The notes under the pieces are model-generated. The model did not search any database. It had not been told where the DNA came from and worked only from the letters and a program-made list of their open reading frames with translations. The position numbers and the translations under genes were made by a program. Below are positions 2,706 through 17,844 of a DNA stretch of 64,000 nucleotides, piece by piece. Source of the stretch: Spizellomyces punctatus DAOM BR117 (taxonomy: Eukaryota); the NCBI GenBank assembly GCA_000182565.2, contig KQ257455.1. One strand, given 5' to 3'. How positions within the stretch are numbered: the first letter of the stretch is position 1; each line of letters starts with the position of its first letter.

Positions 2706-3461
2706 TATCGTCATGCGGTCAACATTCCTGATACTTCTTGTAAACTAACCGGGCTGAACCACCTAACGATTTGTGCCTTCCGATTGGGACAACTCACATG
2801 CATGAAGCATGAATGTTTTACTTTTTTTTCCGGTTTTGCTCGAAATCTCTGCAGGCAGGTTGTTATTTGACAGCCTATTACTTGGCGAGTCAGGCGAACG
2901 TCCACATTGCGCATGGCTTGACCCCTTTTTTCTTTTTGCTGAGTCGGCCGACAGCATGGTACCATTGGTCATAATGTTTGTTTAATGATAATCATTCTCA
3001 TGTCTAAGGCGTGATGGAACATTGTCATCTGGTGAGGCAGGATGAGGAACGATACCAGAGTGAGCCCACCGTGCGTGCAATGCACTTGAACAAAAGACCT
3101 GAAAAATAATAACACAAAACGCAAATACAGAAGATGCGGAAGTTATATTCCGTGGATGCACTTCTCTATATCCTATATTATGTGTATGCCCCGGTCAAAA
3201 GTCTTTTATTTTCACCACATGTAGCCAGGATTTTTAAACCACTTTGAGATCAAACATGGGAAATTGCCACATATAACTGCCCAATGTGTACACCTACATA
3301 CTTGACTTTTGTTGATTATATATAGCAGAGATATAGGGAAAGAAAGGCAGCGGGCCAGGGTATTTGCGATGTGTGTATGGTGGCATCCTGATTCAACACG
3401 CTCACCGTCGTGTCAGTCCTGCATTTAGTCACGTGAGTACTTGCTGTCAACGAGTGCATCA

Positions 3462-4217
3462 TAGTGTGGAGGCGATTGAAAATGGCACTAGGACCCGTTA
3501 TTATCCGGATGAATCCGGTTAATCATATCGCATAATCAGAACCCCCCTCTATCGCTCAGATTGGTGTGGCATGTATTGTAATGTTTTTTTTTAAACTGCG
3601 GTGAGGCGCATGCCAGAGGTCTATAGAAGGGGGGCCTTTTCCCTCTTTCCTCTTTACCCATCCTTGACTCGAAGCATCTGTGCAGCGCTCATTGCGACCC
3701 ACATTGCAACCTCATAGCGACTCACACAACCTCATCGCGACTCGGCCAACCATGAGAACGCCGATGTGGTGGTGTCGAGGACCTTGACCGCCCGACAGCA
3801 ACCATGACCAGAACCAGTGGCAACCAATCGGATCTGATAACAAAACCTACTATTATGCTGCCACATTAGTTGAGCTTGGCTGGTATGTATCGATGGCATT
3901 TCTTGCATTTCTTGTCATTGGGTCATCTTCTGACATGCAGTTTTTTTCTCTAGTCTCCAAGCCTTGTCACTGAACATCCTCCACCTTGCGAGTCTCCCCA
4001 ATGTTGCGAAGACTCTGGCTTCAATGCCATCAAGAGTTCTGGATCAAGGCCTAGTAGGGACCGCATGTGGTGGTGGGCAGTTATCCGGTTAGAACCAACC
4101 GTTACGTATTGCGTGTATAATTGCGTAGTAGTAGCTTAGTTAGCTTTTCCGAACCGGTTGTCGCCGGTTTATTCCCTGGTGTAGTAGCTAGTGCCATTTT
4201 CTGTCACCTCTACACTA
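3462..4217 (+). mobile_element. Non-autonomous Spu-1-like TIR element (Fanzor 'ghost' locus, no Fanzor ORF)
   Basis: Left end TAGTGTGGAGGCGATTGAAAATGGCACTAG (3462-3491) matches the reverse complement of the right end 4188-4217 (TAGTGTAGAGGTGACAGAAAATGGCACTAG) at 26/30; TA at both ends; CATA at 3460-3463. Confidence 0.9.
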
Positions 4218-4232
4218 AGATACAAGTACTCA
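4144..4232 (+). ncRNA. Fanzor1 omegaRNA (scaffold ~4144-4217 plus ~15-nt guide from the flank)
   Basis: TTTTCCGAACCGGTTGTCGCCGGTTTATTCCCTGGTGTAGTAGCTAGTGCC...CTACACTA closely resembles the SpuFz1 omegaRNA as I recall it; stem AACCGG 4152-4157/CCGGTT 4164-4169; pairing GGTGTAG 4178-4184/CTACACT 4210-4216. Confidence 0.85.
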
Positions 4233-4536
4233 AGCAAAACAAACTCGCATTTACTCAGATCAACAAATGTGTTTCATATGGAACCGTTTCAAATTCCATA
4301 ATGGATGTCTAATGTCGGAATGTTCTATCTGTTCGAGAAACTGCACCTTGGAGAGCTAGTATGTTACTCGGATGATGATGATGAAATTGAAAGAGCTTTC
4401 TCTGAGATTGCTTAGTTTCTCCACATCGAGCGGAACTTTCTAATGCTACGTCATGGCCTAAACCAGCAGGTGCATGCGTGGTTATGGCAACCGGTAATTT
4501 GTATCCGCTGGGTGAGCTTCTAAACCTGGCGAGACA

Positions 4537-5382
4537 ATGGACATAGCCGAGGTTCGGGACAAGGTATTTGGGTACCTTTCTTATGTAGAACTCAAGCGCC
4601 TAGCTACGACTTGCAGAACATGGAAGACCTCCTCTGATTACGCTGCTGAAAAATTGCAGTGCATCCTTTCTTTTGAAGGACGCAAAGCATTGACTCTGTA
4701 TCTGTCCCGCACAAACTACAATGAGGGAGGCGAATGGAAACATTACATTCCGCAAACCCCTGTAAAGGTAGATTGGAACTTTTTGTCAGTGCACATCAAG
4801 TTTCCCAATGGACGGGAGATCACTGGCATCAAGTTTCCCAATGGGCGGGAGATCACTGGACCGAAATTCGAGATCCTTCGGACTTATCCGTATGTCAGCC
4901 TGCGCATGGGCGGTGAAGAAGTCGGTAACATATCTGTCATTTTGGAAGACAGCTTTCGCTTGCGCTGGAAAAGATGGAACATGCACGACCTAACTATCGC
5001 GGCCCCTGGTAAAGCATTCTACTCGCCCGAATTGACAGCTGTTTACGACGAATGCCCAAAAGACGGCAAGACCATGGATGTTCTCATCAGTCCGGGAGAC
5101 AACCGGTACATCAATCTCCTCGCTAGTGGATCGATGGAGGTGATGGACAGGCTTTCCAGTTACCATAATTTGTTGAATTTGGTCAGCCACTTGGAGCTCA
5201 TGAAAGCCTCGGACGATGCCATTCGGCGCCGGAAGACGCAAGCAGTAGAAGACCTCATGAGGCCTAATGATCGCTTGGGTGCCGCGATACGTCGATACTT
5301 GCAGTGTGACGTTGGAAGTGCAGTAGATGTCTATGATACGTTGTCTAAATGGAGGACTTCGGGATTAAACACCATGAATTGA
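4537..5382 (+). CDS. Intronless 281-aa protein with N-terminal F-box-like motif
   Basis: AEVRDKVFGYLSYVELKRLATTCRTWK fits the F-box pattern; long uninterrupted ORF. Confidence 0.6.
   Translation: MDIAEVRDKVFGYLSYVELKRLATTCRTWKTSSDYAAEKLQCILSFEGRKALTLYLSRTNYNEGGEWKHYIPQTPVKVDWNFLSVHIKFPNGREITGIKFPNGREITGPKFEILRTYPYVSLRMGGEEVGNISVILEDSFRLRWKRWNMHDLTIAAPGKAFYSPELTAVYDECPKDGKTMDVLISPGDNRYINLLASGSMEVMDRLSSYHNLLNLVSHLELMKASDDAIRRRKTQAVEDLMRPNDRLGAAIRRYLQCDVGSAVDVYDTLSKWRTSGLNTMN
4794..4859 (+). repeat. 33-bp in-frame tandem duplication (IKFPNGREITG x2)
   Basis: CATCAAGTTTCCCAATGG(A/G)CGGGAGATCACTGG twice with one mismatch. Confidence 0.95.
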
Positions 5383-5394
5383 ACAAATGCGTGT

Positions 5395-5496
5395 AGTCAT
5401 GGTAACGATTACCACATCATTGAGCTGCTGTTGAGTTAGTGGTTCAGCTGTAAGTCATGGTAACGATTACCACGGCATTGAGCTGCAGTTGAGTTG
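5395..5496. repeat. Direct repeat with 58-bp period, each copy containing a TGGTAA-CGA-TTACCA hairpin
   Basis: AGTCATGGTAACGATTACCAC..CATTGAGCTGC.GTTGAGTT at 5395 and 5453. Confidence 0.85.
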
Positions 5497-5624
5497 TTCT
5501 GTTGATTTGTCAAAAAAACCCAAGTTGCTCAAATTACTAGACAAGTATCCCGACAAACCATTGGTTCTCCTTGAGTAGGCATCCCCGTGTCACCACGGAA
5601 TACGTCGGATGCAACAAGGAATTT

Positions 5625-5888
5625 TCAAAGTAACCCGATACTGGTCACTTGAAACTGGTCTGGACGTTTGTGCAGGAGTGAACAAAGAGTGTCGAAATCA
5701 CCATCAACCGCGTCGATGGTGCGCAAAGAAATCTTCCTCGTTTGTGGCGGATAGTAAGAGCGTCTGTAGTGAGATTGTTTACCATTGATCTCGTCTATTT
5801 CAAATTCTGCAGTAGGATACTTTTGCTTCAACTGAGCATAGGTTCCTCTGAACCCAAAGTCTGTGAAGAATTGGTGCATTCTATCCAT
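5625..5888 (-). CDS. Small intronless hypothetical protein (87 aa)
   Basis: ATG start in AAAATG context, protein-like composition, lies in a compact ORF cluster. Confidence 0.45.
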   Translation of the reverse strand: MDRMHQFFTDFGFRGTYAQLKQKYPTAEFEIDEINGKQSHYRRSYYPPQTRKISLRTIDAVDGDFDTLCSLLHKRPDQFQVTSIGLL

Positions 5889-5996
5889 TTTAGTTGACGT
5901 CGTCTGAACGCAAGCTAATCGACCTTTTCAGGGTACAACAAGATATTGTTGATGAAAATTCCTGCCACACTAGGTGTCCCATTTTGAATGTAACAA

Positions 5997-6248
5997 ATGT
6001 ACTTTTTTTCGACACAGAGAACAGGAATCATGTGTTATATACTTGTTTCCATCTTGAACTTTATTGTGGACGTGATTGTAAATATAGCCACTTTGATTGT
6101 GGAAATTGTCACGTTCCCCTTTCGGTTGCTTGCCGACTGCTTTGCCCGGTGCAGGAACGACCACGAGAACACGTCGATGGGGCTGGAATTGGAGAAGACG
6201 CAACTACTTTGGATCGAGAAAGGTGAGAAGTACGAAAATTTAGACTGA
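5997..6248 (+). CDS. Small hypothetical membrane protein
   Basis: Hydrophobic stretch CYILVSILNFIVDVIVNIATLIVEIVTFPF; 3' end overlaps the convergent ORF 6240-6620. Confidence 0.4.
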   Translation: MYFFSTQRTGIMCYILVSILNFIVDVIVNIATLIVEIVTFPFRLLADCFARCRNDHENTSMGLELEKTQLLWIEKGEKYENLD

Positions 6249-6620
6249 GATGACACTAAGCGCCGCTTTCATGGAACTGAGGAATGAGACGCCATTGCTC
6301 TTATCCATTTGGGCCAGATACGTCGTACCAGCCAAGATACTTGAACGTGGCAATACATTTCGAATGTCATTCACAGCATCATAGAACAAAGGATATTGTG
6401 CGCCAAGTAGTTCTACCATGGCTGGTAATCTATTGATGACAAGCGGGGTATTCCGTACCATGCATTCAAGGACCGTATTCACTGCCGTTGTTGCATCAAA
6501 CAAGTTCAAGAACACAATGTTCTGGGTCAACAGCTTGTCATAGTCAGCATCCTGCAGAGTCGGTATGATAACGACACTCTGGTCAATGCCTTCCAAGATA
6601 CCCAAACGTATGTAGATCAC
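6240..6620 (-). pseudogene. 5'-truncated giant-virus/bacterial-type glycosyltransferase-like protein fragment
   Basis: Motif YDKLLTQNIVFLNLFDATTAVNTVLECMVRNTPLVINRLPAMVELLGAQYPLFY, which I recall from NCLDV and cyanobacterial hypothetical proteins; no ATG at the 5' end; intronless. Confidence 0.65.
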
Positions 6621-6705
6621 ACACTAAAAGTTTTTCGGTGAACTTTTGGCGAACTTTTGACTTTTTTGCTTAGTGTTGGTAATGACAATGACCAGTCAAA
6701 ATGCG
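6618..6705 (-). ncRNA. Candidate omegaRNA scaffold / element 3' end (distal)
   Basis: On the minus strand, an 8-bp stem UUUUGACU/AGUCAAAA whose loop contains ACACUAA complementary to terminal UUAGUGU; also an AAAAGUU/AACUUUU hairpin; lies downstream of the Fanzor gene. Confidence 0.45.
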
Positions 6706-7085
6706 TGTAATACAAATAATGGATTTCATGGGGGTTGAGATCGTCTTTCAATGCAGTCAGATTTGATTTCCTTTGTCGCTCAATCGGAATATTTGAAGCA
6801 GGATAATGGAAATGACACATACAAAGGATGAATTGTCAAGTTCTCAGCTCCAGGCGATTTGTGATCTGGAAATGACATTTTTAGTACAACAGAATGGGCC
6901 GAAAGGGTTACTTCGACAAAGGTAAAAAGAACTTTTCAAACGTTTTTAAAAGTTTCTCCAGATGGACCAAATTATAGTACACAGGACAAAAACACTGCAA
7001 CTACGTCTTGCGACAGGAGGCGAAGTTAATGCGCCACCCCTAAGCCACTAAGCCTTTTTTTTAACTAACTAAGCTAAGTAAGTAA

Positions 7086-9120
7086 TCACGGTCTTGTGTA
7101 GATGGGGAGTTCATGATGCTGAACAATATTCAGGGTGTTCTGAAGAATGAGGTGTACAGCGGCTATGTTCCTGAAACCAAAAAATACCAACGATTACAGG
7201 TTGACCGACGAAATCAAAATTTCTTTTCTCCTACCGCTCGTAAAACTTGTCACGACCACCGTGAGCTTCGGTATTTGAACAAGCGCTCACCCTCCACACC
7301 TCTCGACCTTCTTCCACTTCGTGTCGCTTCACCTTTTTATGGCATGTTGGACACACTTGGCTGGAGTTAAATTCGCGCCAGTAAGAAAGCTCAGCCTCAC
7401 CCATCGATCGAGGTGGTTGCGGACGCCCCTTCTGAGGAGTTTTTCGAAACGCCCTTGGGGCTCGTCGCGCTGCCCGGCATGTTGTGGTGGAAATCACCGT
7501 CGCCCCAAATAACGACAAGATCGTTCATTGGAACTCCAGCAGGAAAGAAGCGGCGTAAGAATTCTCCCTCGGCTCTCTTAATACAGATGTGTCGGTCTAG
7601 TCTGAGTCGGCGTACTTTTCTCAGGCCCGTGAACTTCAGTCGCTTCGCCAATGTTCGATAGGTAAAGGCAACAAGTTGAGCATACTCAGCGGCACTGCAA
7701 CGTCGGCTATAGTTTTGAGCATCCTTGTAAATTGACTTGATACCATATCGAGGATCTGCTTGCCATTTCTTACGCCACAACTCCCGTTTCCGCTCTCCTG
7801 TAATCTCCCGCCGATATCTTCTGCTGAAGAGCGCGAAGTGTCCATAGCTACTTCGTTTAGGCTTTTGACAACTCGCTTGTGGCCAGAACTGACCCCTTTC
7901 TTGCTTGCGTCTGCCACGCCACCTTGCATTTCGCTTTATACGTCTTTTCCTTCCTCGCGGTTTCGACTTCCTTTGTACCCAGCGTCTTTGCTTTCGGAAG
8001 CGATGGTGCTGACTACGATTCAGATAATAGGGTTGGTATTGAACTTGTCCATCCACGAGGTGCGAACCGATTTGGTAATAGCCAGCAGCAATGATAGGAT
8101 CTTTGTTCGTATCCACCGAGATGATCACTTTGTTCAGTAGGTTTTCTGGGCGAACTTTTGAAAGCTCTGATAGCGTGGACGGGCGGATTCCAGAAACTTG
8201 ATTGACAGATTCCCATTGTTCATAAGCTTTCCGGCGCGTACGATTCATGGTATTCACCAGCACCCCTGCACAGACACCGTCCGTCAAAATCATGTAGTGG
8301 AAGCTCCGGTCAGTATAGGCCCGCTCTGGATCAGGGACTACCTTTCCCACATCGAAGACGCTGCTCCAGACCTTTCGCCAGTGTTCTTGACCTTTTCCCC
8401 TCGTCCCCACCAGTCCACCAAGGCCCAGACTATCCAGCGTGATCGGTTGCCATGCGTCGCCAAATTCAGGGAGCAGAGGAAAGTCGTCAACGAGGCGACC
8501 ACCTCGGTAGTCCGTCTTTGCGAGATCCTTTTGCTCATCCATGCTCTTCCCCTTCAATAGCTCGCGCCAACTGTCCCTCTCCTGCTCAAAGCGCTTACGA
8601 ATCCGGTAGAGAAGATCAAAGTATTGCCCCCAATGCTCGTAAATGTCCTTTTCTTTGAGCGATATGCCTAGAAGAAAATCTCTTTTCGCCTCCTCAAAAG
8701 CTTCGGTGCTGACGGTTAACATCTTGCGCACGGATGCCTTTTGGACGTAGTGTTCTTTAGCGAATTTGCCCAGCGAAGGCAAGGAAACGTTTTGTTGTCT
8801 AATCGAATGTCTAATATATATCGACATTCCTATTATATATGTATATACATTGATATTTGTATATGTGTGTGCAGATTCTTTGCAATTCTGCCAATTACTG
8901 ACTGCATTTTTCCTACCATACTCACCTTGATCCATAGTGCTGTTGTCGTCGCCGTCATCAGATTCTTTCACTCTCCTCCTCCTCCACAGCCGCGCTCTTG
9001 CGCCATAGTGTGCTGCAGAGAATATATCAACTTTTAATCGGAATAATTCGATTTACCTTTCACTCTGATGGCGTGCAAACTTGCCCCCATATTTTGATAA
9101 TCTTTTCCACCTTTTGAACC
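7086..9120 (-). pseudogene. Fz1: Fanzor1 (eukaryotic TnpB-derived RNA-guided nuclease), intron-containing and frame-disrupted
   Basis: FPLLP..ITLDS, FHYMILTDGVCAGVLV, RuvC-I ISVDTNK (D 8111-8113), LVVIWGD, RuvC-II REFNSSQVCPTC (E 7372-7374), SACSNTEAH; after intron 7234-7171 it reads YERNIAAVHLI...RP-stop (7086-7088). Frame changes at ~7395-7460. Probable further introns at 8925-8830 and near 9015-9055; 5' end uncertain. Confidence 0.88.
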
Positions 9121-9179
9121 TTGATCTATGAACGCAATGGAGCAAAGTTACATCGGAATGACTGTAAAAGCAGCAATGT

Positions 9180-9465
9180 ATTGGAAATGCAAATCATGGA
9201 CAAGGATCTTGCAATTTGAGTGCACCGCAACGAATTTGCAGATGCATACTAGACCTCCCTCATTACCAATAGCAGCAATGGTAAATTCAAGACAACTATT
9301 GCGCGCAAGCTTTACCTATTTTCTTTGTCAACAAACCTTGTCATGCCAGAGCAAAATCGAATAGTTAGCGTGCCTTAGCAGTCTTGTCCTGTCTTTGGTT
9401 TGGTGGATAAAGACAAATGGTGTCCTCCCCACTTGAAATGCACCAACTACTGCGCGCCAGCAATT
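9180..9465. repeat. Degenerate, deleted direct copy of ~11570-12070
   Basis: Shared blocks AACCTTGTCATGCCAGAGCAAAA, ACCAACTACTGCGCGCCAGCAA and TCATTACCAA in the same order. Confidence 0.8.
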
Positions 9466-9904
9466 CGTTTTCCGCGTCAACTTGTTATTATTAAATCTTA
9501 TTGTCTGACTAGTCAACCATACTCAAGAATATTACAAACAAGGCTGTGACGTGCATCATTCTCTAAATGCGCCTTTCTAATCGCTTCAACGGCTAAGCCC
9601 AAACTCGATCGGACGGCGGGAGTAGGTGCTATTTGGTCTTGTTCTGTGTTCGGTAAACACGCCACTTCTGCTGCTATTGTTTGGTCGTGCCCACAAGGTG
9701 CTTCACGTTGCGCTTCTTGTTTCGAAGGTCGAGTTTCGCATCTACGGCTTCATTGACGGAATCTTCACTGAGGGCCACTATCTTGTGCGTTTGTGAAAAA
9801 AATGCATTGAATGTGGCCTTCTCGGCCAGAAGTGTCTACAAGGAACAAATAGTTTCAGTCCTTTCAAAATATGCCAGTTATTCTCACTCAGTTTCTATGT
9901 ATTT

Positions 9905-10485
9905 GCTCTACGCTTGGGTCAAAGCCGGCACCGCGGTGCACAAGATCCCAGGTGTCCGCAGACACCCGAGGTGGGTTTGACCTAACTTGGGACCATCGCA
10001 ATGGACTCCACCTCGTACAGTCGCAACGGATGAGGTGCCCTGCGAGCCACTGCCAAACCATGTATCATTTCACTCACCTGCGAGAAGATTGTAGTCCTGA
10101 GTTGAGCAAAAGTTACTGGGCCTTTGAGATCCGGTTCGCTGCGCTACCGTCTTCAGCGAGGTGGTCCGGTCCACCTCGCTGATACTACCTTTATGAACAA
10201 AAAGGAGTTACCCTGAGTTACGTCAGTCTTGTGCGACTGCACAATTACAACAGATGGCGCCCTACAAGCCCTATTGACTCTGAAAGGCCCATTCATTACC
10301 ACGTTCAGTGGCTCTACGCTTCGGTCAAAGCCGGCATCGCAATGCATAAACACCCAGGTGCCCGCAGCCACGGGAATGACCTAACTTGGGACCATCGCAA
10401 TGGATTCCACTCCTACCCCCGCAGCGATAGGACGTGCCCTGCGAGCACTGACAATCCATGTATCATTTCACTCACCTGCGAGAAG
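9905..10485. repeat. Diverged ~180-bp direct repeat pair (9905-10087 and 10311-10485)
   Basis: GCTCTACGCTT.GGTCAAAGCCGGCA, TGACCTAACTTGGGACCATCGCAATGGA and CCATGTATCATTTCACTCACCTGCGAGAAG occur in both copies. Confidence 0.9.
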
Positions 10486-10521
10486 CAGTCCTCATCACCT
10501 CCGCCGATTCTCGAAGCGCTT

Positions 10522-11195
10522 GAGCAGAACACGGCTGCAAGTGGGACTAACTAAACAGGACCCTAACCCCACACCCTCTNNNNNNNNNNNNNNNNNNNNN
10601 NNNNNNNNNNNNNNNNNNNNNNNNNNNNNNNNNNNNNNNNNNNNNNNNNNNNNNNNNNNNNNNNNNNNNNNNNNNNNNNNNNNNNNNNNNNNNNNNNNNN
10701 NNNNNNNNNNNNNNNNNNNNNNNNNNNNNNNNNNNNNNNNNNNNNNNNNNNNNNNNNNNNNNNNNNNNNNNNNNNNNNNNNNNNNNNNNNNNNNNNNNNN
10801 NNNNNNNNNNNNNNNNNNNNNNNNNNNNNNNNNNNNNNNNNNNNNNNNNNNNNNNNNNNNNNNNNNNNNNNNNNNNNNNNNNNNNNNNNNNNNNNNNNNN
10901 NNNNNNNNNNNNNNNNNNNNNNNNNNNNNNNNNNNNNNNNNNNNNNNNNNNNNNNNNNNNNNNNNNNNNNNNNNNCTAGACCCCAAAGTGGAGCAGAACA
11001 CGGCTGCGAGTGGAACTAACTAAACCGCACCCTAACCCCACACCCTACACCATCTCCCACCCCATCGCCCTCCCCATCACCCTCCCCATCCCCGACCCCG
11101 TCACCCTCCCCATCCCCGACCCCATCACCCTCCCCATCCCCGACCCCATCACCCTCCCCATCCCCTATCCATCACCTCCCTCTCCCCAAGTGGAG
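10522..11195. repeat. C-rich minisatellite / tandem array spanning an assembly gap
   Basis: GAGCAGAACACGGCTGC.AGTGG.ACTAACTAAAC...CCCTAACCCCACACCCT on both sides of the N gap, followed by about three copies of the 24-bp unit CATCACCCTCCCCATCCCCGACCC. Confidence 0.85.
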
Positions 11196-11450
11196 CGTTC
11201 CTCCAGATGTGGAGAGCCCATCTTTTCGCGGGGACACCCAACCTCGATGAGACGATGGGAACGCGATGGGAACGCGAGAAACGGGGCCAGGTGGTGAATT
11301 TATAAGGCGTGGGGTTACACAAACTGATGTCAAGTCCGTGTAACGCGGGTGCAATGTGCAATGTGTGAGCACTCTGATTGGACAGATGTGCGCGTCGCTT
11401 AGTAAGCCTCGTTGTCCGGCCGCGTCGGACAACTGGTACGTGAGCAGTAG

Positions 11451-12070
11451 TTAACTCCCCATGCGGTGCAGAGCTAAAGTAGACCTCATTCTTTGTGAGT
11501 GAGGTGTGCTACCGCATATAGATGCATATAGATGCAACACAAAGACGACTGGACAGCCCCAGATGGCCAGTTTGGGAATGTCATGGACAAAAGACGGATA
11601 GTTAGAGCCATAGAGCATACCATAGACGTTCCATGCTTGTAAACCTCCATCATTACCAAAAGCAATCGTATTCAAGACGAATGGTGTCCTCCAGGCACCA
11701 ACTATCAACCAACCTGCTATCCAGCCAAAGAAGCCAATGCACCAAGCGATCATTCCAATACTTTAAACCAACAACTGGGCAAGCTGAGTTCCATTACCTG
11801 TCGATTCAGTCCTAATTCCCAAATTCAACCGTGAACCGCATAGTCCACGCATCGCATCCTGACGCGTTCCCCATCTGTCACAAAGCTTTATCTTTTCTTT
11901 GCCAACATAACCTTGTCATGCCAGAGCAAAAGCAAAATAGTTGGCGTGCCATAGGATCTTGTCATGTCTTTGGTCTGCTAGCCTAGAAACCCCATCTTTA
12001 CCAAAGCTATTCAACACGAAGGGGCGTCCTCGCCACTTTGAATGGACCAACTACTGCGCGCCAGCAAACG
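11451..12070 (-). pseudogene. Membrane-protein gene fragment of unknown family
   Basis: Hydrophobic Trp/Gly-rich ORF 11451-11753; partial degenerate duplicate at ~9180-9465. Confidence 0.35.
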
Positions 12071-12695
12071 CGTTAAACTCTATTATAAAAACTGATGACT
12101 GATCCACAATATGGGGGTTTTCCCACAGACTCATGTCATCACGTGAATGCGCAATGCAAAATAGCATGCTAATTTACCAAAAATGCGCGTTACATCCACC
12201 CCAACATCTTATTTCTCCGCTTCCGTGGATATAAATCCAAGTGTTCCAAAGAATCAAACAGCAAATAACAAGCATCCACGTAAGCAATTGAATTTACAAA
12301 GAAGAGTCAGCCATTTCCCGTTCGTGGGAACGCGTTGCCCCCAACTTTGTTTCAATCGGAGCTCACCGGAGGAGAGAAATACGGCATAGGAAGGTGGATG
12401 AGGTGGACGGGAGAGGTGGAAAAGTTACTTAAGGGCTGATGGCGACTTGCCCACCTTCTACGCATATCAAGCCTCATCATATATTCAGCCATTTTCAACA
12501 TTTCCCCTGCATTGCTTTCTTCTTCTTGTATTATCTGCACGTGCATTTTGTAGATTATAAAGTTTTAGAAATTTTGGTATTTCCCGCGGATAATCATTTG
12601 GCGTGGATATCGCTCCCAAGGAAATCGCTTTTAAAAAAGGAACTTGCTTTGAACTTCCTTTTGTCGTTCCGCTGTCCACTGACTTTCGAATTGTC

Positions 12696-15600
12696 ATGGC
12701 GTCTGCGACTCCCGCGCTGACCGCAACTACGGCGAACGGAGGCCACCTGGAGCTAGATGTGACAAAATTAAAAGAAGATGGACACGTCGTCCTGACGGAG
12801 GACGAACCCACAACGACGAGCAAAAAGGCAGGAAAAGATAAAGAAAAGAAGCCGGAAACACCTCGAGTCTCCTACCTTCAGCTTTATCGTTATGCCAGTC
12901 CGTTTGATATTTTGTTGATAATTGCCGGCACGCTCGCCGCGGCAGCCCACGGCGTCGGAATGCCCCTCATGACCATCATTTTTGGTGAGTCTTTTGTATA
13001 CCCCCTTGCCAACCCTTACAATGCCATACTGACGGCTTTCCTGTATATTAGCTGATATCCTCGAATACTATTATAGTTACGATCCAAACAATCCTGTTTC
13101 CGCTGATCTATTGAGGGATGCCGCCAAAGATACTGCCATATGGTTTGTCATCCTTGCGGCGTCGCTCTTTGCTCTTGCCTACGCTCAAATGTGCTTCTGG
13201 ATGTGGGCAGGTGAAAATCAAGCAAAGGTGGGTAGTCTCTCAATGGCTCTTGGTGAAGTGCGCTGGCAGCTTAGGCACCTTGCTCCCATTCGCAGCGCAT
13301 CCGCGAACTCTACTTTAAATCCATCCTTCGTCAAAATGTCGGCTGGTTCGACGCAACCAGTACTGGAGAGCTGACAACCCGGATGACTGCCGATACAGGA
13401 ATGATCCAAGAAGGCATCAGCGAAAAAGTCGGAATGATCATTCAGTTTGTGACAACATTCATTGCCGGTTTCATTATTGCCTTTATCAAAGGATGGAGAT
13501 TGGCTCTAGTCTTGACGGCATGCTTTCCCTTGTTGGCCGGTGCTGCCGCTCTCATGTCCATTATGGTTGCCGCCAGCTCGGACAAGGGAAACGATGCGTA
13601 TGCATCTGCTGGTGCGTCACAATCGTGTAACACTACAACGATGTAGTCCACTTTCTGATGATATTTTACAGGTGGCATTGCTCAGCAAGTCTTGTCCGGC
13701 ATGAGAACCGTCGTCGCCTTTGGTGGTGAGCACCGTGCGACAAAGAGATACGCTGCACTGCTGAAAAGTGCCGAGAAGGATGCCATCAAAAAGTCTATTT
13801 ACACGGCTCTTGGTGTTGGTATGATTAACTTTCTCATCTTCGCTGTATACTCTATGGCTTTCTGGTGAGTGCTCTACTTGGATTAATGTCTTCCCTGCCT
13901 TTGATTTGACCTAGCTGTCATCCAGGTACGGTGGACGTGAGATTCGGGCTGGCCGTATGAATGGAAAAGAAGTGGTCAACTGTTTCTTTGCGCTCATTAT
14001 TGGAGCCTTCACACTCGGTCAGGGCATGCCTCACTTTAGCGCTCTCGGAAACGCGCAAGGTGCGGCTTACAAAGTGTTTGGCACCATTGATCGCGTTTCC
14101 CCCATCGATGCGAGCAACCCCGGCGGCGAAAAGCCAAGCGAGGTGAAAGGTGATATCGAGTTCAAGGATATTTCATTCCATTACCCGACTCGTGAGGATG
14201 TCCCGATTTTATCCAAGTTTAACCTCAAAGTCCAAGCCGGTAAAACCGTTGCCCTCGTGGGATCATCCGGATCCGGAAAGGTAAGAAATGAAATATATCA
14301 TTTTGGAAAGTCATGCAGAGTTTGCTGAGTTTGCATTTATATCAGTCGACCATTGTAAAACTCGTGGAACGCTTTTACAATCCAGTCTCGGGAACAGTGA
14401 CTCTAGATGGCCACGACCTCAAGGACTTGAATGTGAAGTGGCTCCGACAGCAAATAGGAATTGTCTCGCAGGAGCCAACCCTGTTTGACACGACCATTCG
14501 TCGGAATCTTGTGTTCGGATTGAAGGAAGACCCAGATACGATTCCAAAGGAGAAACTTGACCAAATGGTGGAAGACGCTTGCAAAGTCGCCAACGCCTGG
14601 GGATTTATTCAGACTCTTCCTCAAGGGTTGGACACCTCTGTCGGTGAAGCCGGATCCATGTTATCTGGCGGGCAAAAGCAGCGTATTGCCATTGCACGTG
14701 CTGTCATGCGGGACCCTCGTATCTTGCTTCTTGATGAAGCAACTTCAGCTCTTGACACCGAGTCTGAGAGACTTGTCCAAGCGGCGTTGGAGTCTGCATC
14801 TCAAGGACGAACAACCATTGTGATTGCACATCGCTTGTCCACGATCAAAAATGCTGATTTGATCGTGGTGATGAATAAGGGAGCGATTGTCGAACAAGGC
14901 ACTCATGACGCTCTTGTTGCGGCCCGGGGAACGTACTATGAACTGGTTGAGGCGCAGCGTCTCAGAGGAGGCACGAACCATGAAGGTAATGGCCAAGAGA
15001 AGAATACGGTTGCCATCGATGTTGCCGATCTCGAAAATGCTGTCGAACCTGTCGCTACTGCAGAGCCTGTCAAACGTATCGGTGACGCCGGCGTCACGCT
15101 TGACATTGGAGAAAAGCCGCCAGCCCCTGAGCGCGTAGAGTCTGCACTTGAACGGCGCCAGAGTGTTGTGTCCCTTCGCAAGCGCAAGGAATTGGAAGAG
15201 GAGTTGGCCAAGAAGGAGAAGGAAGCAATGCTGAAGCGAAACGTGGACAAAAAGAGAATTCTGATGATGAACAAACCAGAATTCCCGATCATGTTCTTAG
15301 GGTAAGCTACAGCATTATCATCGCATTCGTTGTAGACGGATACCTTACCAAAGCCACCTAGTGTCATGTGCTCGTTGGTAAACGGCGCGGTTATGCCCGT
15401 TTTTGCCCTAATCTTTTCCGAACTCATCGCTGTGTTCAATCGTACGGGTGATGAGTTAACTCGGGAAATTAACAAATGGGCTCTTGGATTTTTCCTGTTG
15501 GCCATTGCCGCCTTTATTAGTCACGTCATTCAAATCGGTCTCTTGCGAATTGCCGGTGATAAACTTACCACTCGCCTCCGTCATGAGTCGTTCCGTGCCT

Positions 15601-17272
15601 TGATGAGACAGGAGATTGCATTTTTCGATGATGAGAAGAACTCTACGGGAGCGTTGACCGCCAAGCTCGCCGAGGATGCCAACCTGGTACAAGGTCTCAC
15701 TGGACAAACTTTTGCACAGATCCTGCAATTGATCTCCAACTTTACTGTTGGACTTGGAATTGCCTTTTCAAACAGTTGGCAGCTCACACTCGTCGTTTTG
15801 GCCTGTGTGCCCTTGGTCGGGATCGGTGGTTATCTTCAGCTCAAGACCTTGACTGGTTTCGGTGAAAAGTCCAGGGAGGCTTACAAGGATGCCAACCAAA
15901 CTGCATCCGAAGCCATTGAAAGCATTCGTACCGTGCAGACGCTGACTAAGGAGGAAAAGTTCGCGTCTACCTACGCCGAGCAGATCAAGGTTCCCCATCG
16001 TATGGTAGTCAAAGGAGCGTTCGTGAGTTCCGTTGGCTTTGCCAGTGCTGAGAGTGTTATCTTTTTGACATATGCCCGTATGTATTGTGGTCTTTATCTG
16101 TGTGGAACAAGGTCGTATGTGCTGACAATCTCTGGTTTGTTAGTTGCCTTCTGGTACGGTTCTGAATTGATGCTCAAAAACACATACGATGCGAAGCAAG
16201 TCATGACAACCATGTTTTCCATCATTTTTGCTGCCATGGCTGCTGGGCAAGGTAATACTAGATGATACGCGGCCACTTTCGTTTCCATATGCCGGCTCTA
16301 ATATTCTGGCTGGTTCAATTGTCTAGTCACAAACTTTGCGCCTGATGCAGCCAAAGCCAAGCTCGCTGCCCTTGGCATCCTCGATATTCTCGACCGTACG
16401 TCTCGCATCGACGCAACCAGTACGGAAGGCGAGCGTCCTGCAAAGCCGCAGGGCCGTCCATCAACTATTGACACGCACTTTGCTTACCCTACTCGTCCCG
16501 ACATCTCTATTTTGCGGGGATTGAACATTGCGGCCGAGGTTGGAACGACCGTAGCATTGGTCGGCCACTCTGGTTGCGGTAAGAGTACCGTTCTTGGATT
16601 ATTGGAGCGCTGGTACGATGTTACAGATGGACGTGCGGAGGTGGACCAGCTCGATGTCCGCATGTGGAACTTAAAGTACCTCAGGGAACAGATGGCGCTT
16701 GTCGGACAGGTAAGCAACTTTTGTATATGGCTGCGATCTGTGAAGGGGAGCTGATGTGGCATTGACCTTGCTAGGAACCCATCCTTTTCGATGTGTCCAT
16801 CCGTGAAAACATCGCCTACGGCGCACCTGAAGGCGAGGCAACCGACGAGCAAATCGAAGCCGCCGCCCGCGCCGCCAACATTCACGATTTCGTCATTGGT
16901 CTCCCCAAAGGATACGACACAATGGTCGGCGAAAAAGGAGGCCAACTCAGTGGTGGCCAAAAGCAACGCATTGCCATTGCTCGCGCGCTCATCCGAAACC
17001 CGAAACTCCTCCTTCTAGACGAGGCGACCAGTGCCCTAGACTCTGAATCCGAAAAAGTGGTCCAAGACGCCCTCGACCGCGCTGCCAAAGGTCGTACAAC
17101 TGTAGTGATTGCACATCGTCTTTCTACCATCCAGAATGCGGATAGGATTTACGTCGTCCGCGGTGGACAGGTGGCAGAGATGGGCACCCATGCGGAATTG
17201 GTTGATCTGGGTGGGGCGTATGCCGAGTTGGTAAATCAGCAGATGCTCCACAAGGAGGAAACAACGTCATAA
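12696..17272 (+). CDS. MDR1: Full-length ABCB-type multidrug transporter (P-glycoprotein), multi-exon
   Basis: Two TMDs and two NBDs: GSSGSGKS and GHSGCGKS Walker [15 protein letters not shown] signature twice, [11 protein letters not shown] twice; GT-AG introns. Confidence 0.96.
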
Positions 17273-17844
17273 AGTGTATGATTGGTTGGTACATTGGATA
17301 CTTTGGGTACTTTGTCATAGATTCCTTTTTTTTTCGGCATACTTGGGATAATGGACTGCAATTATGAGAGCCTGGTGCTCTGGCTTCAAAATACACGCTA
17401 CAGAACATATACATGTGCTTGGATTGCTATTTCTTTGTTGTTGCTTTGGTTTGGATGGACATTTCTGGTGGCCGTTATGATGTTGGCCATACCCAACCTA
17501 GAGTTTTCATCCGAGATGTTGTGAGCTCTGCACTAATATCCGCTCCACCCCAGGTACGAAGACACGGAATCAAATGAATCAGTTTGCTGAATATCTCTAA
17601 ATTGTCAATCGTCAGGACCGACGGAGCTGCCATCCAACCTGGGCGTCGTCTACGAGTAACCCAAAACTCCGATTGCCTTACTGTGCCACCTGCGCGAGAA
17701 AGTTAAAAACTCTTCAATCACGTGGTAACTGATCGATGCACTAAGCCACGTGAGGGTCCGATCGCGTTCTCATCACATCGTCAGTTTCCGTGGGACGGTC
17801 ATCTTTCAAAAACCGCACTCTTTTCAACTGTCCCATGGTGTGAA

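Follow-up and report, generated by a model that had tools for sequence, protein, structure and literature searches.

A truncated glycosyltransferase gene tail of putative giant-virus type in Spizellomyces punctatus DAOM BR117

In a stretch of 64,000 nucleotides (nt) from contig KQ257455.1 of the Spizellomyces punctatus DAOM BR117 assembly GCA_000182565.2, hereafter the window, four open reading frames (ORFs A to D; Table 1) lie close together at 4537-6620, and a first-pass annotation had taken them for an endogenous giant-virus fragment. Our analysis showed that ORF D is a truncated stub, approximately the last 100-115 residues, of a glycosyltransferase module with a predicted GT-B fold, and that on balance, as judged from its sequence relationships, D appears to be of giant-virus type. 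The viral claim held for D only, on the basis of its relatives in IMG/VR, profile tests and a 52-row tree, whereas A, B and C were without viral relatives. We therefore lean, with some reservation, towards a single small relic of a giant-virus-type gene at this locus; a multi-gene viral fragment is not supported.

Table 1. Features of the ORF cluster and its flanks in the window.
Feature	Position	Strand	Description
Left element	3455-4224	+	~770 nt, gene-less; 37-nt inverted repeats 3455-3491 / 4188-4224
ORF A	4537-5382	+	281 aa, intronless; F-box-like N-terminus below threshold; deposited protein, transcribed
In-frame 33-bp tandem duplication in A	4794-4859	+	IKFPNGREITG twice; 2 copies 96-97% identical
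Direct 43-nt repeats (n=2) just past the stop of A	5395-5495	+	93% identical
ORF B	5625-5888	-	87 aa; no supported homologue, length in the chance range, almost no minus-strand RNA
ORF C	5997-6248	+	83 aa, hydrophobic; without supported homologue; 3' of A, in DNA transcribed on the plus strand
ORF D	6240-6623	-	127 codons stop to stop; C-terminal stub of the predicted GT-B module
ORF D, ATG form	6240-6461	-	73 aa; first ATG at codon 55
Candidate terminal inverted repeats of the right element	6918-6937 / 9041-9060		20 nt, 80%
Right TnpB/Fanzor-like gene	7086-9052	-	551-codon open frame 7400-9052; interrupted frame

The conserved motif to which the first-pass annotation had drawn attention (NIVFLxLxD...NTxxEC) is literally present in D, as NIVFLNLFD...NTVLECMVRNTPLVINRLPAMVELLGAQYPLFY. 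A family hidden Markov model (HMM) was made from 12 homologues, with the row of the window left out, and searched against the six frames of all 64 kb. It matched 6243-6623(-) with E 3.8e-43 at profile positions 716-816 of ~830, and it found neither a second copy nor the remainder of the family gene in the window, the next-best stretch having E 1.3. In tblastn searches of the window with the 12 homologues, only the last ~85-125 residues of each matched, at ~6243-6677, and a relaxed search (E up to 50) gave, besides D, nothing below E 0.1 among the matches listed. The homologues are longer proteins with 43-55% identity; 11 of them are 823-935 amino acids (aa) long and carry the pyruvyl transferase domain PF04230, and the twelfth, P0001, is a stand-alone protein of 425 aa without this domain. 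The family HMM detected PF04230 in none of the window's six frames, nor any match there to the N-terminal half of the GT-B module (HRSGW...DRTFHW...HHTFDT...HPTE...GAWLRN; profile positions ~440-640). Because the family HMM finds no other match in the 64 kb, D is a truncated stub. Its homology sets in 9 codons past an in-frame stop and 45 codons ahead of the first ATG.

The remaining piece shows no visible decay. It has no internal stop, the C-terminal block (YD.LL..NIVFLNL.D...NT..EC.VRNTP...N..P...E.LG..YP) is present with all its invariant columns, and 40 of the 45 well-conserved columns are retained, which ranks D 10 of 28 sequences. Since it covers no more of the C-terminal Rossmann-like half than its final strands and helices, D cannot act as an enzyme alone. 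Neither the ATG form of D, nor a 67-aa ORF upstream of it, nor the 512-aa Fanzor-like ORF on the right flank has been deposited as an exact protein. Misassembly at the borders of D is unlikely because both are crossed, without differences, by low-coverage contigs from further runs bearing the same species label, although these runs may share a sample with the assembly.

The nature of the module was approached through P0001. Its AlphaFold model, based on a 30-row alignment, had a predicted local distance difference test value (pLDDT) of 81.4 and a predicted template modelling score (pTM) of 0.79, and Foldseek matched it to WaaG, BshA, MshA, SenB, trehalose-6-phosphate synthase and glycogen synthase with E 4e-6 to 6e-5. 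These matches point to a GT-B glycosyltransferase (GT) fold, in which D would correspond to model residues ~306-419. Profile comparison with solved structures did not name the module (best E only 0.22-0.26), and neither Pfam nor NCBIfam yielded a family for P0001 or for the bacterial stand-alone forms.

A pattern scan of IMG/VR yielded 261 candidate stretches, 193 of which encode a relative; 80 of the confirmed loci were kept. Among them, 32 carry GVMAG names and 40 lie on contigs of at least 50 kb, up to 911 kb (manual count). The genes next to the D-family gene were scanned in 56 ORFs of at least 200 aa from 5 viral loci (80 ORFs had been extracted, from 7 loci). In 4 of these 5 loci the D-family gene encodes a PF04230 fusion of 886-1116 aa with the GT module at its C-terminus, and the neighbours include a Mimivirus R596-like Erv1 oxidase, DUF5832, EsV-1-7 repeats, topoisomerase II, HSP70, collagen repeats and GT10, GT25 and GT47 enzymes. 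On giant-virus metagenome contigs the module makes up the C-terminal half of pyruvyl-transferase fusions that measure 870-1116 aa. In a profile search of a 5.8-billion-protein collection, 1,759 of the 8,000 candidates scored were relatives (E up to 1e-5), nearly all of them unnamed metagenomic proteins, some of which carry the block twice. The proteins P0017-P0045, of 725-1005 aa, each have two C-terminal copies of the GT block and no precomputed Pfam domain, except P0017 with PF18922. Among the 12 and 120 database relatives listed, one has a eukaryote name, that of a green alga, and none has a fungal name. Vertically inherited fungal genes were not observed as best matches in the sequence searches.

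In split-half profile tests the viral profile outscored the bacterial one for D by 21.5-30.3 bits in 4 of 4 random splits; the held-out rows were correctly classed in 121 of 136 viral and 81 of 84 bacterial cases. A careful IQ-TREE analysis was performed on 52 rows, namely a random 28 of the 67 distinct viral and 20 of the 41 bacterial sequences, P0001, P0003, P0004 and D, the long-branch viral row L063 having been dropped beforehand. ORF D was sister to P0001 (support 93/79) and lay inside a set of 23 rows, 19 of them viral (support 95/94), with 19 of the 20 bacterial rows apart. Forcing D onto these 19 bacterial rows cost 25 log-likelihood units, with p 0.032 in the approximately unbiased (AU) test. 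The terminal branch of D is long (0.55-0.60, vs medians of 0.18-0.34), and that of its sister P0001 is equally long. The bacterial row L081 stems from a 1,134-nt contig of a Bacteroidota metagenome-assembled genome; it sits among giant-virus sequences, prefers the viral profile and is probably a misbinned viral or eukaryotic contig.

Several observations weigh against the reading of D as a silent, single relic of giant-virus type. The module also occurs in 40 bacterial or archaeal loci, including isolate cyanobacterial chromosomes (one genome per prokaryotic species was searched), where it is a stand-alone protein of 323-444 aa or fused to other domains, with 35-67% identity. In a quick tree of 134 rows x 101 columns D fell into no supported clade and its position was not resolved, and a tree constrained to join D to the bacteria could not be rejected (AU p 0.685) and in fact did better than the one from the short free search; the short alignment, of ~101 columns, limits confidence in the placement of D. 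In the 52-row analysis the AU value is marginal and L081 was removed after the tree had been seen. A fungal P0001 would allow D to be the decayed paralogue of a host gene. The good conservation of D is unexpected for an old dead fragment and would be compatible with a recent truncation as well as with a residual function. In addition, the Atlas neighbours of ORF A include two Nucleocytoviricota clusters, one of them named F-box (score 0.89, 105 of 256 features), and the RNA evidence given below comes from one run under one condition, of which ~6% was read and which is 3'-biased. A non-viral D, that is, a pseudogenised fragment of a host gene (fungal or other eukaryotic) or of a gene acquired from bacteria, would agree with the prokaryotic distribution of the module, with the stand-alone form of its sister, with the 134-row tree and with the host-like codon score and G+C content at third codon positions (GC3, 0.52) of D. 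We nevertheless regard this origin as unlikely, in view of the preference for the viral profile in every split, the position of D deep in the viral set of the 52-row tree, the AU value against the bacterial side and the near absence of eukaryote names among the relatives listed.

Beyond D, using Pfam, we found neither a hallmark viral gene (major capsid, PolB, A32 ATPase, VLTF3, D5 primase-helicase etc.) nor any other virus-like domain in 119 of the 148 ORFs of at least 45 aa in 1-12.6 kb and in 27 long ORFs elsewhere in the window, in agreement with the first-pass remark that no hallmark viral core gene was visible. ORFs A, B and C had no relatives in IMG/VR and, together with the Fanzor-like ORF of the right flank, no match in the 6,713 ORFs taken from the 80 viral loci, the best E being 0.08 for the hydrophobic C; for the Fanzor-like ORF, IMG/VR held no close relative. 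A multi-gene block of non-host composition was not found, as GC3 was host-like (0.47-0.60 in A-D vs 0.42-0.60 in host exons) and only one of the four ORFs had viral relatives. Thus, with no hallmark gene, no compositional break and no second virus-like gene, the locus does not support a multi-gene viral fragment.

The contrary proposal, that the whole of 4537-6620 is the relic of one giant-virus insertion and A to C are viral ORFans, A being a viral F-box protein that the host has come to express, possibly brought in with the Fanzor-type elements, is improbable. It would draw on the giant-virus type of D, on an intronless A without cellular homologue and with the Atlas neighbours mentioned above, on the tight packing of the ORFs between Fanzor-type elements on both flanks, and on the carriage of Fanzor elements by giant viruses, which has already been published (10.1101/2024.09.03.611062, PMC10432273). 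The searches of IMG/VR, of the 80 loci and for viral domains, the host-like GC3 and the chance-level lengths of B and C argue against it, and the Atlas scores lie in the range of a lead only. A wider version, in which ~4.2-6.9 kb would be the remnant of a giant-virus insertion, A a viral F-box ORFan domesticated as a ubiquitin-ligase adaptor, and the Fanzor-type elements would have come with or targeted the virus, is likewise improbable. The locus gives no direct evidence on Fanzor carriage by viruses.

Transcription was followed over 4000-17500 in the RNA run, which has the same species label. First mates were sense, as calibrated at the 3' end of the plus-strand ABC-transporter gene (depth 91 on the plus vs 0.34 on the minus strand at 17079-17500) and by a CT..AC joint at 9835/10078, which marks a minus-strand intron and occurred only in minus-lying reads. 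Plus-strand depth was 28.8 over 4902-5352, 14.7 over 5353-5803 and 12.1 over 5804-6254, and minus-strand depth 0.24-0.97 over 4902-6254 and 0.11 over 6255-6705; over B and D it was 0.11-0.35, vs 12-29 on the plus strand. No splice joints were reported between 4451 and 7156. Because plus-strand depth is high and minus-strand depth near nil, A and the DNA downstream of it, including C, are transcribed, and B and D are essentially silent in this run. That D might be the final exon of an active but unannotated host gene with upstream exons too diverged for detection, as its 127-codon open frame, its conserved columns and a TTTTAG acceptor-like site coinciding with the upstream stop could suggest, is very improbable, since the two most plausible upstream minus-strand donors (chosen by eye) join out of frame, the in-frame donors found give introns of only ~20-40 nt, the minus strand is nearly silent with no joint seen, and a GT-B active site cannot be built from the C-terminal third of a single Rossmann half. 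With no start codon ahead of the homology, with the other domains lost and with essentially no transcription, D is expected to do nothing.

ORF A is the one member of the cluster that stands as a gene in its own right: the exact 281-aa ORF is a deposited, annotated protein, located on a 1.5-Mb contig. The earlier description of the cluster as intronless fits A, through this deposited ORF and the lack of splice joints in the RNA run. Its F-box-like N-terminus was seen again as a likeness, which stayed under the Pfam gathering thresholds (PF12937, E 2.5e-4, 21.2 vs 24.3 bits; PF00646, 18.8 vs 20.5 bits). Residues 5-33 match the first helices of F-box proteins; unlike these, A lies under both thresholds and, by Pfam, no substrate-binding domain was found in it. 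A word-indexed search matched A alone, and HMMER gave no real homologue among 1.84 billion representatives, returning A and one low-complexity repeat protein (P0016), which was rejected as a spurious match. The Atlas structure rows all had template modelling (TM) scores below 0.4, on a model with pLDDT 0.41, and we take the Atlas likeness as a weak lead to a viral origin. The direct repeats past the stop of A were considered as a hairpin or terminator and discarded, as they gave no significant fold (z -0.40). A is best explained as an orphan gene of its own, transcribed and restricted to its lineage, whose F-box has degenerated; should this F-box work, A might serve as an adaptor of an SCF ubiquitin ligase.

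ORFs B and C are most likely non-coding, with C lying within the transcribed region downstream of A. Their lengths are at chance level because such ORFs occur about three times per kb (190 stop-to-stop ORFs of at least 84 aa in the window, 2.97 per kb), and neither has a homologue or an exact deposited protein. For C, matches to DUF7396 (Pfam, E 0.014) and to an LPFR motif (NCBIfam, E 9.5e-6, 25.3 vs a cut-off of 40 bits) were both below cut-off and were taken as hydrophobic-peptide noise. For B, an Atlas likeness to PF05047 (mL43 / CI-B8; score 0.84, 177 shared features) was unsupported by Pfam and NCBIfam, and the best match among solved structures by sequence was an unrelated surface protein (E 0.11). 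Four packed ORFs are indeed present, and C and D form the overlapping tail-to-tail pair noticed earlier, sharing the 9 bp at 6240-6248; as a set of genes, the cluster loses B and C to chance-level length and D to its being a gene fragment.

The cluster had also been placed between two Fanzor elements, which is roughly right, the left one being a gene-less inverted-repeat element and the right one having weak family evidence. The inverted repeats of the left element are 84% complementary, with 0 expected by chance. Its 3' ~210 nt (4009-4220) had a plus-strand depth of 7165 (bin 4000-4450) with many sequence variants, and contigs diverge into different sequences at 4009 and at 4217-4220; since the contigs continue into different sequences, this part is a dispersed, expressed repeat. 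No Rfam family was detected in 1-12 kb, the left element included, at E up to 0.1. The left element resembles the gene-less "ghost" guide-RNA loci described, alongside Fanzor1 loci, by Saito et al. 2023 (PMC10432273). By that description, it shares with ghost loci the lack of a gene, the inverted repeats and an abundant 3' RNA, and differs in its length of ~770 nt vs the ~550 nt given there. Compared with Fanzor1 loci in the same account, the right flank is alike in a candidate TnpB-type zinc ribbon and RuvC-like motifs and unlike in that none of the solved structures searched matches its ORF in sequence.

The right gene is spread over several frames, with a zinc-ribbon motif and then a RuvC-III-like motif in frames other than the long one and a stop at ~7086; the frame changes may be either introns or frameshifts. 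The zinc ribbon is like the Cas12f1-like TNB family of Pfam (E 0.0016, below cut-off), and the motifs were read by eye in three different frames. In a copy of the Protein Data Bank this ORF found no sequence match, where a published structure of SpuFz1 would reportedly be expected among the entries. The candidate terminal repeats at 6918-6937 / 9041-9060 were rejected as element ends, being too weak at 20 nt and 80%. ORF D starts ~470 bp downstream of the stop of the right gene, on the same strand and outside the possible end at 6918-6937. Antisense to the Fanzor-like ORF, a plus-strand RNA peak was seen at 8476-8960 (depth 62.8 at 8510-8960), in which 8477-8558 is skipped by six reads, the ends being non-canonical (AG..AT). 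Immediately upstream of the Fanzor-like gene lies the 3' end of an expressed minus-strand gene (9412-10078, depth 211) with a 242-nt GT..AG intron at 9836-10077 and no Pfam family for its ORFs.

Further along the window, intron-bearing housekeeping genes begin ~7 kb from the ORF cluster, and each of these neighbouring genes is split over several ORF segments. From ~14 kb onward the host genes include those for an ABC transporter, a G-patch protein, a RasGEF, exportin-T, XRN1 and a sulfate permease. Two assembly gaps are present, at 2584-2683 and 10580-10975; the latter is flanked by short dispersed repeats (9307-9463 and 11883-12067) that are 86-90% identical.

Taken as a sequence of events, the preferred reading of a single relic would mean that a stretch of DNA from a giant virus, or a gene taken over from one, once stood here, with the transfer probably from virus to host. 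Everything upstream of the last ~115 codons of D would then have been lost by deletion or rearrangement, at a point no more than ~300 bp away from where the neighbouring Fanzor-like element ends. The full-length giant-virus fusion proteins probably build capsid or fibril glycans, and the D stub would be left without the acceptor-binding domain and most of the nucleotide-sugar domain. The apparent cluster would be a chance neighbourhood of unrelated items in a transposon-rich stretch of host chromosome.

Compared with the giant-virus PF04230/GT-B fusions, D aligns to their C-terminal block with 41-56% identity and every invariant column and differs in amounting to only ~12% of the protein. In one report (PMC10117803), Mimivirus L143 and Megavirus Mg538 are annotated as "pyruvyltransferases" of fibril-glycan clusters, and the D family may be equated with theirs. 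The bacterial stand-alone GT-B proteins of cyanobacteria, Bacteroidota and Planctomycetota (L081-L120) share the module and the motif block, whereas D fits the viral profile better and stands apart from them in the 52-row tree. The association of giant viruses with zoosporic fungi has already been published (PMC13533422, PMC7017919). In the first of these, a major capsid gene is described as the sole viral gene on fungal contigs with host-like GC and intron density. The present locus is similar in having one viral-type gene in host-like DNA and differs in that D is a truncated auxiliary glycosylation gene, not a hallmark gene, from a family that is also bacterial. No publication on the GT module in fungi came to light, no search having been aimed at it.

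The locus shows that a short ORF with a conserved-looking motif can turn out to be the tail of a far larger gene and that tight packing of short ORFs is by itself no viral signature. If D is virus-derived, it would add one more small footprint of giant-virus contact with a zoosporic-fungus-like host, and it would mean that auxiliary glycosylation genes, and not just capsid genes, leave such footprints.

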